Source of the DNA: a virus
Virus genome (UHGV): UHGV-0187105
Direction: 5' to 3' (one strand)
Length of the DNA stretch: 24,417 bases
In this document: positions 11,216-23,350 of the stretch, piece after piece
Position numbering within the stretch: the first letter of the stretch is position 1
Layout of the letters: each line of letters starts with the position of its first letter
Translations under genes and position numbers: made by a program
Notes under the pieces: model-generated
Seen by the model: only the letters and a program-made list of their open reading frames with translations
Told to the model about the DNA's origin: nothing
Databases searched by the model: none

Positions 11216-11896
11216 ATGAAGGGCTTCTGTAATGCCTTACTTCATGAAATTATTTCATCCGGGTTTACGCAGAAAACTTTTCACTTTATGTGCATTATGA
11301 AAATGCCAATTGCGGCATATCTCTGGGAAACTGAAATGATCCATACCGTACACTTCATGACAGATGTGACAGTTGCTTCTGTATCCAGCCTTATGGATGT
11401 TTGCCTCAAAGCGATATCAAGCCCTAACCAACCAGCCTCTGAGATCAGGATTTACATCTCTAGTAAAGGTGGAGATACCGTTGCAGGTTTTACCGCATAC
11501 AACTTTCTTAAGTCTCTTCCTGTAAAGGTGAAGACACATAACCTTAGTAACGTGGAATCTATAGCAAATGTTATTTTCATGGCTGGATCTGAGCGGTTTG
11601 CTAATCCTCTCTCGCGATTTTTATTACATCCTTTACATTGGGGATTTGCCGCCCCACAAGCAGATCACCTCAGGCTTAGGGAATGGGCGGCATGTCTGGA
11701 TGACGACTTGCAAAGATTTGTGCAGGTGATGAATATCGAGGCTCTCGCTGTAGCCCCAGATGAGCAAATTGACTGGGCTAATTTGATCACTTCTGCAACC
11801 ATCATTGATCCGGGAAGGGCCACCGAGTTGGGTATGATCCAGAATGTCGAGGCTGCAACCATACCCACAGATTCGATCAGGTGGTGGGTTCTGTAA
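11216..11896 (+). CDS. ClpP-fold serine protease-like protein (stand-alone moron gene)
   Basis: Core region IRIYISSKGGDTVAGFTAYNFLKSLPVKVKTHNLSNVESIANVIFMAGSERFANPLSRFLLHP aligns by eye to E. coli ClpP [66 protein letters not shown], with Ser and His at the catalytic positions. Opposite strand to all flanking genes; visibly more AT-rich than neighbours (not computed); own downstream terminator. True start uncertain: the 11216 ATG sits in a hairpin loop and an in-frame ATG at 11336 has GGGAAA upstream. Confidence 0.6.
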   Translation: MKGFCNALLHEIISSGFTQKTFHFMCIMKMPIAAYLWETEMIHTVHFMTDVTVASVSSLMDVCLKAISSPNQPASEIRIYISSKGGDTVAGFTAYNFLKSLPVKVKTHNLSNVESIANVIFMAGSERFANPLSRFLLHPLHWGFAAPQADHLRLREWAACLDDDLQRFVQVMNIEALAVAPDEQIDWANLITSATIIDPGRATELGMIQNVEAATIPTDSIRWWVL

Positions 11897-18219: not shown

Positions 18220-19157
18220 CCCCTGAATCCTGCCGGGATCTGGCTGTAGTCCACGTTGTCGTAACTGGCTTTGAAGTACGGGTCTTCGCGTTTTTCGGTG
18301 TACGTGCTGACGGACGGCGATAAGCGCAGGGAAAGCTCATCCCATTTTTCCCGCAGCTTCGACGGGCTGAGCACGTTACGGCACCAGAACGGATCGCGAC
18401 TGACGCGGCTGTACATCTCGCAGATTTGTTTATGAGTACGACCATCCTGCACACACATCAGGCGAATTTCGTTTGCCCAGGCTGTCCAGTTCGGTTCTTT
18501 GGGACGAACCACCTCGCCGTCACATTCGGCGGCCTGCTCGTACAGGGCGATGATTTTTTTCCAGAGCCACTGTGCGCAGGTCAAATCATCCTGCGTTCCC
18601 CACTGGCGCTTTTTAGGGCTGAATACAACCGCATCAGGATGGCGAGTTAAAAACTCCTGTTCAGCCGTCTGCGTGTCCGGTTGCGAAGCGTCCGGACGAG
18701 AAGTTTTTTTATCTGACGGATCATGTTTTGATTTTACTGACGGATCCCCGCCAGATTCTGACGGGTGAAAAACCGCTTTTTTGCCAGATTTCGACGCATC
18801 AAATTTTGACGGGTCAGATTTTGATGCGTCAGATTTTGACGGGTCAGAATCTGACAGTTGAGAAAATGCCGCTGCCTGAAGCTTCGCAACGTTAAGCTGA
18901 TAAACATTCGACGCATTGCGGTTACCCTGGCGACGCGCCTTACGCGTTAACCAGCCTTCTGCTTCCAGCCGTGCGATAGCCGTTCTGACGGTACTCATCC
19001 CCGCGCCAATCTGGCGGGCAATGGTTTCAATTGATGGCCAGCACACACCTTCGTCATTACTGAAATCAGCTAGGCGGGCCATAATTGCCACGCTGGATAA
19101 TTTCATGCCTGACGCAGCGCAACCATCCCATACATAGCCGGTTAATTTAGTGCTCAT
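18216..19157 (-). CDS. Replication initiator, O-like (N-terminal HTH; iteron array inside coding sequence)
   Basis: 313 aa at the position of lambda O, after the cro-proximal genes; N-terminal winged-helix-like domain; the central linker SDPSKSDASKSDPSKFDASKSGKK is encoded by tandem 15-bp DNA repeats, as the lambda ori iterons are inside O. Confidence 0.55.
   Translation of the reverse strand: MSTKLTGYVWDGCAASGMKLSSVAIMARLADFSNDEGVCWPSIETIARQIGAGMSTVRTAIARLEAEGWLTRKARRQGNRNASNVYQLNVAKLQAAAFSQLSDSDPSKSDASKSDPSKFDASKSGKKAVFHPSESGGDPSVKSKHDPSDKKTSRPDASQPDTQTAEQEFLTRHPDAVVFSPKKRQWGTQDDLTCAQWLWKKIIALYEQAAECDGEVVRPKEPNWTAWANEIRLMCVQDGRTHKQICEMYSRVSRDPFWCRNVLSPSKLREKWDELSLRLSPSVSTYTEKREDPYFKASYDNVDYSQIPAGFRG
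18713..18855. repeat. Iteron-like tandem direct repeats (candidate origin of replication)
   Basis: At least six degenerate 15-bp units of form TGAYGSRTCAGATTT (e.g. cgacgcatcaaattt, tgacgggtcagattt, tgatgcgtcagattt, tgacgggtcagaatc) in phase with the O-like reading frame; short T-rich tract at 18700-18711. Confidence 0.6.
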
Positions 19158-19505: not shown

Positions 19506-20167
19506 GCGTTAGTTTCTCCACAGTCACGACACGCCACGGCGCCCGGAGCTGCACACTCGCGGGCGTCATTACTTTCTGAAATGCAAAAAATTTTGTAGAC
19601 CAGTGCTGCATGCTCCTGCAGCTTCGAAATTGAGAGATACAGCTCGTCGTTAATTGCTGTCTTCTCATGCGGTTCCACCACACCGTCTTCGATTGCCGAA
19701 CGAATCTGTCTGGAATAACTGCCAATCTGTTCAATGACTTCCAGCAGGCGCTGGTTAATATCGGCGTTGTCCACATCCTCGACGTCAGGAAGAGACACAA
19801 AGACGCCATTTGCAGACTGCGCCACAGCGTCAGCAATGAAGTGAGTTCCACCAGCACGTTGCAAAATCATTGCCCATCCCAGCGGGAAAATCTGATCGCC
19901 ATCGGCACGAAGGCGGTTAAATAATGCGTTTTCTGTTACATCCAGCCAGTCAGCTGCTTCAGCGTAACCACCCGGCAACGCTGCGATAGTTTTTCTGACA
20001 GCTTTCACGTACCACTCAGGCTGTTTTTCTACTTTCCAGTGATGCTTACCCACGGTTAGCCTCATCGTTCTGTGGTTTCTGTTAATCGATTTATCCATTA
20101 GATTTTTCATAAAGCTCAGGTTTAAATGGCAACCGTCCGCAAGTTCTATATGCAGCTTCTGCTGCAC
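19502..20167 (-). CDS. Early regulatory protein, CII/YdaT-like by position (family uncertain)
   Basis: 221 aa ORF directly downstream of the cro-like gene; annotated start overlaps cro by 77 nt, so the true start may be an internal Met (20110 or 20098). Confidence 0.4.
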
Positions 20168-20291
20168 GTCCTTTTGGAATTAACTGGCCCGGACGGTTTC
20201 GCCACTGATAAACGGCTTCAGTTGTTATGCCGAAAAAAGCAGCAACTTTCTCAATACTGCCGAAGTAGCTTTCGATATCGTCAGTTGTCAT
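20091..20291 (-). CDS. Cro-like HTH repressor (Cro/YdaS-type)
   Basis: 66 aa; HTH segment VAAFFGITTEAVYQWRNR; divergent from the CI-type repressor across a 97-bp operator region; GGAGG 4 nt upstream of the ATG. Confidence 0.7.
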   Translation of the reverse strand: MTTDDIESYFGSIEKVAAFFGITTEAVYQWRNRPGQLIPKGRAAEAAYRTCGRLPFKPELYEKSNG

Positions 20292-20388
20292 ACGCCCTCC
20301 AAACTAAGTTTTATTAGATGCTAATTACAAATCTATCTTTGGTCAATAAAAACTAAGATTACTTAGCAATTCAAGAAATGGTGCTCCT
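20292..20388. promoter_or_regulatory. Divergent immunity control region (OR-like operators with candidate pR)
   Basis: Repeated ACTAAG-core motifs (aaactaagtttt at 20301-20312; palindrome CTAAG-atta-CTTAG at 20353-20366). Candidate rightward promoter on the minus strand: TTGACC (20346-20341) - 17 nt - TAGCAT (20323-20318). Confidence 0.55.
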
Positions 20389-21015
20389 ATGGAAACGGTT
20401 GGTCAGCGTATAAAAGCTCTGAGAAGAGTTACCGGAACGTCCCAGAAAGAATTGGGTAAATTTTGTGGAGTAAGCGACGTTGCTGTGGGGTACTGGGAGA
20501 AAGACATCAATACCCCTGGTGGGGAGGCACTTTCGAAATTAGCGAAGTTCTTCAATACGTCAATAGATTACATTCTTTATGGTGCTGAGTTTGAAGGCAA
20601 ACTCGTCACAAACATGCGCAGAGTTCCTGTAATATCGTGGGTTCAGGCTGGGCAGTTTACTGAGTGCAGGGCAGCAGAAGTGTTTAGTGAAGTGGACAAG
20701 TGGGTAGATACATCATTAAAGATTGGTGATAACTCATTTGCATTAGAGGTTAAAGGTGACTCCATGACTAACCCTAATGGCCTCCCAACAATACCAGAAG
20801 GCGCAACAGTGATTGTAGATCCAGATGCAGAACCTCGTCATGGAAAAATAGTCATCGCTCGACTTGATGGAACAAACGAAGCTACAGTTAAAAAATTAGT
20901 CATCGATGGCCCTCAAAAGTTTTTAGTGCCATTAAATCCTCGGTATCCCAACATCCCTATCAATGGTAATTGCCTTATCATTGGTGTAGTCAAAGGAGTT
21001 CAATACGAACTCTAA
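20389..21015 (+). CDS. CI-type phage repressor (N-terminal HTH, C-terminal S24 LexA-like autopeptidase)
   Basis: 208 aa; N-terminal HTH (GTSQKELGKFCGVSDVAVGYWE); C-terminal domain with GDSM serine motif and a downstream Lys (VKKL) consistent with the Ser-Lys dyad of self-cleaving repressors. Confidence 0.85.
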   Translation: METVGQRIKALRRVTGTSQKELGKFCGVSDVAVGYWEKDINTPGGEALSKLAKFFNTSIDYILYGAEFEGKLVTNMRRVPVISWVQAGQFTECRAAEVFSEVDKWVDTSLKIGDNSFALEVKGDSMTNPNGLPTIPEGATVIVDPDAEPRHGKIVIARLDGTNEATVKKLVIDGPQKFLVPLNPRYPNIPINGNCLIIGVVKGVQYEL

Positions 21016-21100
21016 GACCTCTCTTCTCTAACTAAGGCACCGAACTAAGAAAAGTTTGGTGTTTTCTCTTGCCATAATAACTAAGTTAAGTTAGATTTTA
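21016..21100. promoter_or_regulatory. Second cluster of operator-like ACTAAG motifs immediately 3' of the repressor gene
   Basis: taACTAAGg (21030-21037), gaACTAAGaaaAGTTt (21043-21058), taACTAAGttaAGTTag (21079-21094): same core as the cro-proximal sites, two with an AACT-N6-AGTT inverted arrangement. Confidence 0.4.
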
Positions 21101-21221
21101 TATCAAAGATAACGAACAGGCAGGACGCCCACGAAGTAGCCGCCTGGGGCATATGAAGTCCAGGATGATTCGTTGAGTCATGTTGTGCCACCAGGCACTC
21201 ATGTTAAAGCAGGTGTATGAA

Positions 21222-21497
21222 ATGAAAGTCCAGATTTTAAACAATAACTGTGAAGTCGTTTGGTCATACGACATAGCCGCCCCTGTAGATCAGAGCGGCG
21301 ATAGCTGGACCAATGGGAAACATCAGATTATGGCTGGAGTTGTGTTCTCTTTACGCCGTGCTTTGGAACAGGCTGAAGTATTTCCATCAGACCCTGAATG
21401 GAAATGGCCTTTTTCTATTTGTCCAAATTCGGAGAGCACATTTCAGAAAATTGGTCAGAAAGTCGCACTCGAAGAGCATCAGCCAACTGTTTCCTGA
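21222..21497 (+). CDS. Hypothetical protein at the rex-equivalent position downstream of the repressor gene
   Basis: Track ORF 21180..21497; in-frame ATG at 21222 has AGGTG 6 nt upstream and is the likely start (91 aa). 3' end overlaps a minus-strand ORF by 83 nt. Confidence 0.4.
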   Translation: MKVQILNNNCEVVWSYDIAAPVDQSGDSWTNGKHQIMAGVVFSLRRALEQAEVFPSDPEWKWPFSICPNSESTFQKIGQKVALEEHQPTVS

Positions 21498-21660
21498 TTT
21501 TTTCAGGTAACTCGTCGGCATCGCAGAAACAACAACGCTCGATCATGTTGAAAGCCGATTCGTAGAACTGTTTCTGCTGAGTGTCGCTGAGACAGGAAAA
21601 GAGCGACGTTACGATGATTTTATTAATTGCATTATCAAGTTCTTTTTCATCAAAAGTCAT
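21415..21660 (-). CDS. Hypothetical acidic 81 aa protein, antisense-overlapping the previous ORF
   Basis: ATG at 21660 preceded by AAGGAAAA about 8 nt upstream; balanced protein-like composition; transcribed toward the repressor gene. Confidence 0.4.
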   Translation of the reverse strand: MTFDEKELDNAINKIIVTSLFSCLSDTQQKQFYESAFNMIERCCFCDADELPEKIRKQLADALRVRLSDQFSEMCSPNLDK

Positions 21661-21779
21661 TTGATTTTCCTTTTATGTATACGGGCTTAAAAGGATACCA
21701 CCGAGCCTGAAGTGGTGAAAAGACAGGCACATAACAGCTAAGTATTTTCAACCAGAGAGAATCCTTAGCGTTGTGGTGA

Positions 21780-22090
21780 ATGCGGCTCAGCGCACGCGGG
21801 TTAAGGTTGAGGCTGACAGTCGACCTTCTGTGGATACCCACCCGCCTGGTGTGCAACCTTCGCCAGGCACCGGGAGGCACCCGGCACCACAACTTTATGC
21901 TGTGTGTAGTCCTGGCGGTACCAGTTTGTACCCTTGCTTCCGGCTGGTACCGTCCTTTTTACAAAACAGAGAAGAGCATCACCGGACGACGGGCTCATAA
22001 CCCAATCCATCCGGGCGGCAGTCACCGCAGGTGTTCTTCTCTGTTTTGTGGAGAAACTAACCGACCTTGCAGGGTCGATATGATGAGGAG
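21780..22090 (+). promoter_or_regulatory. GC-rich, hairpin-dense non-coding leader of the early-left operon (candidate cis-acting antitermination or attenuator RNA)
   Basis: No credible ORF; successive hairpins (tcagc...gctga 21786-21815; gcctgg...ccaggc; ccggg-aggca-cccgg), an internal terminator-like hairpin, then a 17/18-bp long-range stem acaaaacagagaagagca (21961-21978) / tgttcttctctgttttgt (22032-22049) just before the RBS of the first gene. Confidence 0.35.
21916..21960 (+). terminator. Terminator-like hairpin plus T-run inside the leader
   Basis: 9-bp stem cggtaccag / ctggtaccg with a 19-nt loop followed by tccttttt on the plus strand. Confidence 0.4.
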
Positions 22091-22097
22091 CAGCAAA

Positions 22098-22460
22098 ATG
22101 GCTAGCGAACGCAGTACTGATGTGCAGGCATTTATCGGGGAGCTGGACGGCGGCGTATTTGAAACCAAAATCGGCGCAGTTCTCAGTGAAGTCGCTTCCG
22201 GTGTGATGAACACGAAAACCAAAGGTAAGGTCTCACTCAACCTGGAAATCGAACCATTTGATGAAAACCGTGTGAAAATCAAACACAAACTCTCATATGT
22301 TCGCCCGACTAACCGCGGGAAAATTTCCGAAGAAGACACCACCGAAACGCCGATGTATGTCAATCGCGGTGGTCGCCTGACTATTCTGCAGGAAGACCAG
22401 GGACAATTACTGACTCTTGCCGGTGAACCTGACGGAAAACTCCGCGCAGCAGGTCATTAA
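22098..22460 (+). CDS. Hypothetical early protein (first gene after the leader)
   Basis: ATG at 22098 with GAGGAG about 9 nt upstream; the upstream part of track ORF 21780..22460 reads as translated non-coding sequence. Confidence 0.55.
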   Translation: MASERSTDVQAFIGELDGGVFETKIGAVLSEVASGVMNTKTKGKVSLNLEIEPFDENRVKIKHKLSYVRPTNRGKISEEDTTETPMYVNRGGRLTILQEDQGQLLTLAGEPDGKLRAAGH

Positions 22461-22525
22461 TATCGTTCTTAATTAACCGATTATTTATCTCATCACTGAA
22501 TATCTTAATATAGTGAGGACTTATT

Positions 22526-23350
22526 ATGTCTCAAAACTTAGACGCAACCGCATTTAATCAAATCCATGCCCTTATTTCTGCTCAGGGTGTTAATGAAATT
22601 ATCAGTAAGATTGGTGCCGATGCTGTGGCATTGCCTGAGAATTTCCGCATTCATGATCTGGAAAAATTTAATTTAAATCGCTTCCGTTTCCGTGGTGCGC
22701 TTTCCACTGCCAGCATCGATGACTTTACCCGTTATTCTAAAGATCTTGCAGATGAAGGCACCCGCTGCTTTATCGATGCTGATAATATGCGTGCCGTCAG
22801 TGTGCTTAACCTGGGTACTATTGATGAACCAGGTCACGCAGATAACACCGCCACACTCAAACTGAAAAAGACAGCACCGTTCTCTGCTCTGTTGTCTGTT
22901 TACGGCGAGCGTAACTCCCAGAAGTCACTGGCAGAATGGATTGAAGACTGGGCCGACTACCTTGTGGGCTTTGATGCTAATGGTGACGCTATTCAGGCAA
23001 CAAAAGCGGCTGCGGCTGTCCGTAAAATCACGATTGAAGCAAACCAGACCGCTGATTTTGAAGATAATGACTTCAGCGGCAAACGCTCCCTGATGGAGTC
23101 TGTCGAAGCGAAGACCAAAGACATTATGCCAGTGGCATTTGAATTTAAATGCGTTCCGTTTGAAGGTCTGAAAGAACGTCCGTTTAAATTACGCCTCAGT
23201 ATTATCACTGGCGATCGTCCTGTACTGGTTCTACGCATTATTCAGCTGGAGGCGGTGCAGGAAGAAATGGCTAACGAATTTCGTGATCTGCTTGTTGAGA
23301 AATTCAAGGACAGCAAAGTAGAAACCTTTATTGGTACTTTCACCGCCTGA
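22526..23350 (+). CDS. YfdQ-like protein (DUF2303-like), early-left operon
   Basis: 274 aa; GTGAGGA SD 6 nt upstream of the ATG; size and neighbourhood match my recollection of CPS-53 prophage YfdQ followed by YfdR and YfdS. Confidence 0.55.

Follow-up and report, generated by a model that had tools for sequence, protein, structure and literature searches.

The 24,417-nucleotide virus genome UHGV-0187105 (the window, meaning this whole stretch) is an SfV-like, lambdoid E. coli prophage. Here we analyse the hexamer ACTAAG around its immunity genes, a cI-like repressor gene and a cro-like gene that diverge from each other as in a lambdoid repressor/cro pair. With a probability of roughly 85%, ACTAAG is the half-site of the operators of the cI-like repressor, and these operators form a conventional lambdoid switch with right (OR) and left (OL) sets. 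Cro presumably uses the same operators. A preliminary description of this DNA had taken the motif to mark sets of the OR/OL type, and our results agree with it: the dyads overlap the predicted right and left promoters (PR and PL), are kept across 12 genera, and have a layout that parallels that of phage 21. The same description counted three ACTAAG clusters. The two that flank cI stand, but the distal one is a GCTAAG/CTTAGC pair with a 21-nt gap, one base away from where it had been placed. The two immunity genes are:

20389-21015, plus strand: cI-like repressor gene, 208 amino acids (Pfam HTH_3 N-terminal and Peptidase_S24 C-terminal domains).
20091-20291, minus strand: cro-like gene, 66 amino acids (Pfam P22_Cro, E 4e-11); first gene of the PR transcript; in E. 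coli genomes its product is listed as a regulator of the Cro/CI family.

We counted the motif across the window and in the intergenic segments around cI. As a plain count, the window-wide motif search proposed earlier gives no overall excess of ACTAAG (6 copies against 5.8 expected), and the pentamer CTAAG is even under-represented (13 against 27.9 expected); by position, however, it reveals a strong clustering around cI. Five of the six ACTAAG copies (20303-08, 20352-57, 21031-36, 21044-49 and 21080-85) sit in two AT-rich intergenic segments (32% GC) on either side of cI, and the sole other copy in the window is at 11543. Dinucleotide-preserving shuffles restricted to these two segments (n = 5000) gave an expectation of 0.26 copies, and none of them reached five. 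The dyad CTAA-N6-TTAG was seen three times where 0.019 were expected, a number that again no shuffle reached, and its copies at 20304-17, 20353-66 and 21081-94 are the only perfect ones in 24.4 kb. Allowing up to two mismatches in the 16-mer dyad ACTAAG-N4-CTTAGT yielded three matches in the window against 0.44 expected, all of them flanking cI. Since most ACTAAG copies and all perfect dyads are found there, far above the shuffle expectation, both clusters flanking cI are real and non-random. The palindrome CTAAG-ATTA-CTTAG noted earlier between the repressor and cro genes is present at 20353-66. The two AACT-N6-AGTT sites noted after the repressor gene are likewise present (21043-56 and 21079-92), but the first of them coincides with the top of a terminator-like stem. 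Judged from these patterns, the real unit appears to be the 14-bp dyad CTAA-N6-TTAG rather than the lone ACTAAG. Symmetrising 45 distinct sites gave the half-site A-(A/T)-C-T-A-A-(G/A)-(T/A)-(T/A).

The motif search in related prophages, which had also been suggested, was carried out on GTDB species representatives. It returned 24 usable loci whose repressor carries the helix GVSDV[AT][VI]GYWE, from Serratia, Kosakonia, Enterobacter, Kluyvera, Rahnella, Providencia, Rouxiella, Sodalis, Lonsdalea, Ewingella, Mangrovibacter and Tatumella, and in most of these loci the dyads are found at near-constant positions. Perfect dyads number 72 in 6.5 kb of cI flanks (11.1 per kb) and six in 93 kb elsewhere (0.064 per kb), a 172-fold enrichment beside cI homologues with the same helix. 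The six outliers occur in pairs and resemble displaced operator sets. No dyads were detected when the heteroimmune loci of SfV, Ayreon and phage 21 were scanned. The sites are thus specific to the immunity type, travelling with the repressor and being absent from heteroimmune relatives. A scan of IMG/VR with the N-terminal domain gave only repressors of 99-100% identity; it served the analysis of the cargo slot described below and not footprinting, for which the diversity came from GTDB.

Between cro and cI, several dyads of the same consensus lie about two helical turns apart, together with a predicted promoter:

20304-20317, no strand: OR1, perfect dyad CTAAGTTTTATTAG (18-mer 20302-20319), abutting the -10 element of PR and spanning the predicted PR start.
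20318-20346, minus strand: predicted PR from a consensus scan, with -35 TTGACC (20346 to 20341), a 17-nt spacer and -10 TAGCAT (20323 to 20318).
20328-20341, no strand: OR2, weak dyad CAAATCTATCTTTG overlapping the PR -35 element, assigned by positional homology to the central dyad of relatives.
20353-20366, no strand: OR3, perfect dyad CTAAGATTACTTAG, 22 bp before the cI ATG, from the dyad search.

The centres of OR1 and OR2 are 24 bp apart and those of OR2 and OR3 25 bp. Read along the minus strand, the order is TTGACC, 17 nt, TAGCAT, OR1, a GGAGG ribosome-binding site and the cro ATG, and the PR elements GGTCAA and TAnnAT are retained in mEp460, LLS and a Klebsiella phage. In 23 of the 24 related loci a dyad occupies the OR1 position, 82-87 bp ahead of the start of cI, and in the remaining one it is found at 97 bp; the CTAA/TTAG core of OR1 is invariant across 80 IMG/VR loci. 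The OR3 position, 34-38 bp before the cI start, holds a dyad in 22 loci, with one further locus having it at 48 bp and one having none. OR2 is degenerate, and its assignment by positional homology is weak: it lies 61 bp before the cI start, in the register of a central dyad (61-63 bp) present in nine of the 24 loci. The two Rahnella loci have this central dyad in perfect form (CTAATCTTTATTAG), and the other seven have it with a single mismatch, among them Sodalis, an Enterobacterales metagenome-assembled genome, Lonsdalea and Mangrovibacter. Because the 4 bp at the centre of OR3 vary unusually little (AT[TA][AGT], creating TAAGAT or TAAAAT), a -10 element of the repressor maintenance promoter (PRM) embedded in OR3 is suggested, and TAAGAT at 20354-59 is its probable candidate.

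Downstream of cI, a second set of the same sites (OL1 and OL2, 21045-21094) overlaps and flanks the predicted early-left promoter. The region contains:

21031-21036, no strand: isolated ACTAAG without a matching right half; ACCAAA in mEp460.
21034-21070, plus strand: hairpin resembling an intrinsic terminator (RNA fold), arms 21034-46 and 21053-65, then the U-rich tail TTTTCTCTT.
21045-21058, no strand: OL2, asymmetric dyad CTAAGAAAAGTTTG within the cI terminator hairpin, 36 bp ahead of OL1, from the dyad search and relatives.
21069-21097, plus strand: predicted PL from a consensus scan, with -35 TTGCCA, a 17-nt spacer and -10 TAGATT, and a start near 21104.
21081-21094, no strand: OL1, perfect dyad CTAAGTTAAGTTAG over the PL spacer and the first half of the -10 element, from the dyad search.

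OL and PL thus begin 16-54 bp past the cI stop codon. PL is the sole sigma-70-like match on the plus strand between 19900 and 22600, and its -35 element is TTGACC in LLS and most relatives. The 16-mer CTAAGTTAAGTTAGAT of OL1 is unchanged in mEp460, LLS, Serratia, Kosakonia, Enterobacter, Kluyvera and Rahnella, in spite of an identity of only about 77% for the whole module. Downstream of cI, 15 of the 24 related loci have OL2, a -35 hexamer (mostly TTGACC) and an OL1 ending in TAGATT, and wherever both sites occur (15 of 15 related loci) OL2 and OL1 are 34-36 bp apart. In Sodalis, Ewingella and Mangrovibacter the OL2 dyad is perfect; the site aligns with OL2 of phage 21. A third OL site was sought upstream of OL2 and none was found; the 21031 ACTAAG lacks both a right half and conservation, and in the terminator fold it pairs with the U-tract. 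As it lies 13 bp from OL2, where two 18-bp sites would overlap, this copy is doubtful as an operator and probably not a functional one. Towards its 5′ end, the predicted PL transcript does not fold significantly. We also compared CAGGCAGGACGCC with CAGCAGGACGC of the phage 21 PL transcript start, a motif that lambda has as well; the match is too short and shifted by about 10 nt, and it was not used as evidence.

The hairpin at 21034-21070 is predicted to end the cI transcript. Its fold has an energy of -15.1 kcal/mol (z -2.4), and the AACT-N6-AGTT site at 21043-56 forms the apex of its stem. A compensatory change from C-G to U-A is seen in the stem in LLS and Enterobacter. In the covariation test only one pair was changed on both sides, and the score was above all but 26 of 500 shuffles, which is suggestive and weak. 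An annotated terminator occupies the equivalent place in phage 21. In LSJC7 and Mangrovibacter, OL2 is enclosed in a hairpin made of different flanking arms, and Sodalis has a separate terminator. We tentatively propose, as a possibility less likely than its opposite, that a single element serves as both OL2 and cI terminator, with the operator dyad at the hairpin apex, kept across Enterobacterales with differing stems. If so, one sequence would be selected both as double-stranded DNA, for repressor binding and cooperation with OL1 or OR, and as RNA, where it would insulate transcription from PRM and the repressor establishment promoter (PRE) from the PL operon; repressor occupancy could then affect read-through into the early-left genes.

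The extent of the immunity module was read from mosaic boundaries. The nearest phage records are vB_EcoM-689R6 and vB_EcoS-569R4 (99%) and mEp460_4F5 (95%), with SfV a near relative for the flanks only. SfV, which has a different cI, matches the window at 19900-20077 and 21111-22600 (95-99%) and nowhere between. Because SfV shares both flanks yet swaps exactly this stretch, 20078-21110 is the exchangeable immunity module; it holds both real clusters and not the distal pair. The mEp460 module is 95% identical and has lost the 21031 ACTAAG. The LLS module has 77% DNA identity and 90% protein identity, with an identical recognition helix; its OR3 and OL1 are unchanged base for base and its OR1 differs at two non-core positions, whereas the surrounding intergenic DNA differs more. 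An Enterobacter prophage likewise has identical OR3 and OL1 and a near-identical OR1.

The nearest solved structure to the N-terminal domain of the repressor is the N-terminal domain of P22 c2 (1ADR, 2R1J, 3JXB; E 2e-9), and the nearest to its C-terminal domain is lambda cI (E 7.5e-28). Overall identity is 49% (tblastn) or 50% (MAFFT alignment) to phage 21 cI, which nearly equals P22 c2 in its N-terminal domain, and 48% (MAFFT alignment) to P22 c2 itself. This switch and that of phage 21/P22 both have cI and cro diverging from each other, an OR of three sites spaced by about 23-25 bp, cI followed by a terminator, the OL sites and PL in this order, an 18-bp dyad with a 4-bp centre, a P22 c2-homologous N-terminal domain, an S24 C-terminal domain and a Cro of the P22_Cro family. 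The phage 21 record gives the order cI, terminator, OL3, OL2, OL1, pL with operators of 18 bp. With phage 21 the layout OL2, TTGACC, AATAA, OL1 is also shared, and the phage 21 segment AATTAAGTTTTCTTCAAA...TTGACCAATAAATTAAGAAGTCTTAAAT aligns base for base with AACTAAGTTTAGTTTGAT...TTGACCAATAAACTAAGTTAAGTTAGAT of LLS; from this direct alignment we conclude that the architecture is homologous. Two recognisable OL sites are present here, unlike in phage 21, and OL2 is fused into the terminator hairpin, while phage 21 has a separate terminator.

The specificity, on the other hand, is not that of P22 and phage 21. The P22 operator consensus is ATTTAAG-N4-CTTAAAT, and the half-site is TTTAAG or ATTAAG in those phages and ACTAAG here, in full ATTTAAG against A(A/T)CTAAG. 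The recognition helix is SDVAVGYWEKD in place of SNVAISQWERS; 6 of 13 positions differ, which in P22 c2 numbering are N32D, I35V, S36G, Q37Y, R40K and S41D. With a repressor identity of only about 49%, this phage and phage 21/P22 should therefore be heteroimmune. The switch thus appears to belong to a widespread, uncharacterised immunity type that has the design of P22 and phage 21 and a new specificity, and operators for it were not described in the literature that we searched. The only CTAAG dyad returned by these searches was the C-box of C.Csp231I, CTAAG-N5-CTTAG, an inverted repeat bound by a helix-turn-helix dimer (PMC9638921). It has the same pentamers as the phage operator, but its spacer is 5 nt and not 4, and the protein is a restriction-modification controller and not a phage repressor. 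Cross-talk of C.Csp231I with the repressor region of the Rac prophage is known (PMC9638921), and the resemblance of its C-box to the phage operator is a possible source of cross-talk.

The likeness to lambda is mainly one of switch logic, with a tripartite OR at 24-25 bp spacing and a similar repressor C-terminal domain. The operator sequences are unrelated to those of lambda (17-bp sites), and OR and OL are about 0.7 kb apart here against 2.4 kb. In lambda, rexAB lies between cI and OL, and the C-terminal domains of cI mediate cooperativity and OL-OR looping. Because the repressor C-terminal domain resembles that of lambda cI, looping between OR and OL is plausible here by analogy.

Several points weigh against an OR/OL switch of this kind. 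The records of 689R6, mEp460_4F5 and LLS annotate no operators, and binding by the repressor is something we infer. OR2 and OL2 are degenerate, the symmetry of OL2 is confounded with the terminator stem and the covariation there is weak. PR and PL are consensus predictions with 9 of 12 matches. Many of the comparison loci are closely related, so that the counts above do not represent independent events.

The distal pair, which the preliminary description took for the true leftward promoter, lies at the start of a conserved leader:

21737-21769, plus strand: distal hairpin GCTAAGTATTTTC / GAGAATCCTTAGC (inverted repeat I21), 5′ end of an STnc100-like leader RNA.

Its GCTAAG and CTTAGC (21738-42 and 21764-68) form a hairpin with 13-nt arms. 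RNA from 21725-21785 folds better from the plus strand (-19.2 kcal/mol, z -3.4) than from the minus strand (-12.1). The leader, 21693-22097, lies between PL and the yfdP-like gene and is common to SfV, SfII, SfIV and other heteroimmune phages. Rfam STnc100 (RF02076) matches 21740-21962 over model positions 1-206, i.e. at full length (E 2e-7), with a score of 43.1 bits that is below the curated cut-off of 47; the distal CTAAG/CTTAG hairpin is outside the STnc100 consensus structure. The STnc100 RNA family is associated with prophages and is a relative of PasD (bioRxiv 10.64898/2026.05.13.724894), and published copies are found in other phage operons, e.g. downstream of stx2. The full-length match and the prophage context agree with STnc100/PasD, a likeness that concerns the distal pair only; the position between PL and the yfdP-like gene differs, and an own promoter was not detected here. 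We had considered the leader as a relative of the HK022 put antiterminator RNA and dropped this idea: an Rfam scan of HK022 25.5-30.1 kb, the region upstream of its O gene where the immunity/PL region is expected, yielded no STnc100 match. At the very start of the leader is a small conserved hairpin, ACCACC-GAGCCTGAA-GTGGT (21697-21716), which in LLS lies about 20 nt past the PL -10 element; the stem CCAC/GTGG and the loop GCCTGA are retained in 689R6, mEp460 and LLS. This small hairpin may serve as a nut-like or processing signal. An N-like gene was not seen.

Three other explanations can be set against an OR/OL switch confined to the cI flanks. In the one closest to the preliminary description the operators form three clusters, of which the distal one (21738-21769) marks the true PL/OL, and the intervening open reading frames (ORFs) are rex-like and transcribed with cI. 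An inverted CTAAG/CTTAG pair just upstream of a conserved structured leader does invite this reading, as does a Salmonella ChIP-exo (chromatin immunoprecipitation with exonuclease) study that reports sigma-factor binding at STnc100 copies (PMC10794520). The distal half-sites, however, are 21 nt apart and not 4, and lack ACTAAG. On neither strand did a sigma-70 scan find a promoter at the pair, and a sigma-54-like GGCAC...GC, judged by eye, has a spacing that is off by one base; the sole plus-strand match remains the one at 21069-21097, and the module ends at 21110. The pair is kept in heteroimmune SfV, with one loop substitution, and of 17 phage records with the hairpin, 13 are without this repressor and four have it. 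It is missing in LLS and the Enterobacter prophage, which have the same operators and in which PL is joined directly to the leader hairpin ACCACC...GTGGT. One of the two ORFs, moreover, is on the opposite strand. The comparative data largely refute this arrangement, which we regard as very improbable. With its 21-nt spacing, its place outside the immunity module, and its presence in heteroimmune SfV and absence from co-immune LLS, the pair is best read as an unrelated RNA hairpin of another module, neither an operator nor a part of the switch, and the PL position given earlier is therefore wrong. Given PMC10794520, a secondary or minor promoter near the leader, none being predicted here, keeps a small residual probability that counts against our reading of PL as the leftward promoter.

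An opposite view accepts only the cro-cI sites as operators and treats the copies after cI as by-products of a terminator hairpin and an AT-rich promoter. It draws on two of the three downstream ACTAAG copies being part of the terminator-like fold, the 21031 copy not being conserved, and it remains improbable, although less so than the three-cluster arrangement: the perfect dyad of OL1 lies outside the hairpin, is the same in seven genera and matches OR1 of Rahnella and Rouxiella exactly, it sits on the PL -10 element as OL1 of phage 21 does, and Sodalis combines a perfect OL2 dyad with a separate terminator. The dyads might also be bound by a factor other than cI or Cro, for example the CII-like activator (Phage_CP76) or a protein of the host; the assignment of the sites to cI is by context, and the CII-like gene adjoins cro. 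This is the least probable of the three, as SfV and Ayreon share the CII-like segment (95-99% up to 20077) yet lack the dyads, which travel with the cI/cro module and the recognition-helix type and have a geometry equal to that of P22 and phage 21 repressor operators.

Between the operators and the leader lies a stretch that differs among relatives:

21111-21692, no strand: variable cargo slot from PL (+7) to the leader, outside the operator system.

Among the 80 IMG/VR loci with the same repressor, OL1 and the leader are separated by 664-1071 bp in at least ten length classes, and we therefore interpret 21111-21692 as a cargo slot. Its content differs in 689R6 and mEp460, and it is empty in LLS. 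Here it holds two convergent ORFs of unknown function that overlap by 83 bp, 21201-21497 on the plus strand (phrog_3195) and 21415-21660 on the minus strand (phrog_3311). The preliminary description had placed these in the rex position. A lambda-type rex arrangement has genes between cI and OL/PL that are co-transcribed with cI; here no gene lies there, the first ORF starts at 21201 and the other is antisense. As PL directly follows cI, the ORFs appear to lie downstream of PL and OL, unlike in lambda, and not to be rex-like.

Taken together, we propose the following mechanism. The binding unit would be A-(A/T)-CTAA-(G/A)-N4-(C/T)-TTAG-(A/T)-T, spanning 18 bp around a 14-bp core, and a repressor dimer would read this dyad through its P22 c2-type helix-turn-helix domain. 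Relative affinities would make OR1 a strong, OR2 a weak and OR3 a strong site between cro and cI. With OR1 and OR2 over the start and -35 element of the leftward PR, bound repressor would turn off cro, and OR3 would overlap the probable PRM -10. OL1 would cover the PL spacer and -10 element, with OL2 in the hairpin that would terminate cI. In the lysogen the repressor would thus block PR and PL, possibly with cooperativity between sites, until RecA-stimulated self-cleavage via the S24 domain lifts the block. PL would then transcribe the early-left operon, starting with the variable cargo insert and continuing into the structured leader RNA.

Beyond the switch, the immunity genes are flanked on the left by the CII-like gene and an O-like replication gene, and on the right by yfdP-like and yfdQ-like (DUF2303) genes. 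Within the O-like gene we observed a 15-bp repeat of 4.3 copies with the consensus CAGATTTTGACGGGT (18785-18848), which encodes a repetitive DPSKSDASKS stretch of the O-like protein and is probably an origin iteron array.

The switch is a conventional lambdoid one in our reading and adds no new principle. The immunity module is nevertheless common: the 1-kb cro-cI segment was found in 517 of 5426 complete E. coli genomes, the module extends to prophages of at least 12 other enterobacterial genera, and its operators are unannotated in the phage records examined. It would represent a natural specificity variant of the structurally characterised P22 c2 system, with a T to C change in the half-site plus changes in the recognition helix. 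The operator consensus and the module boundaries may thus serve for immunity typing, for the prediction of superinfection immunity and for reporter design.

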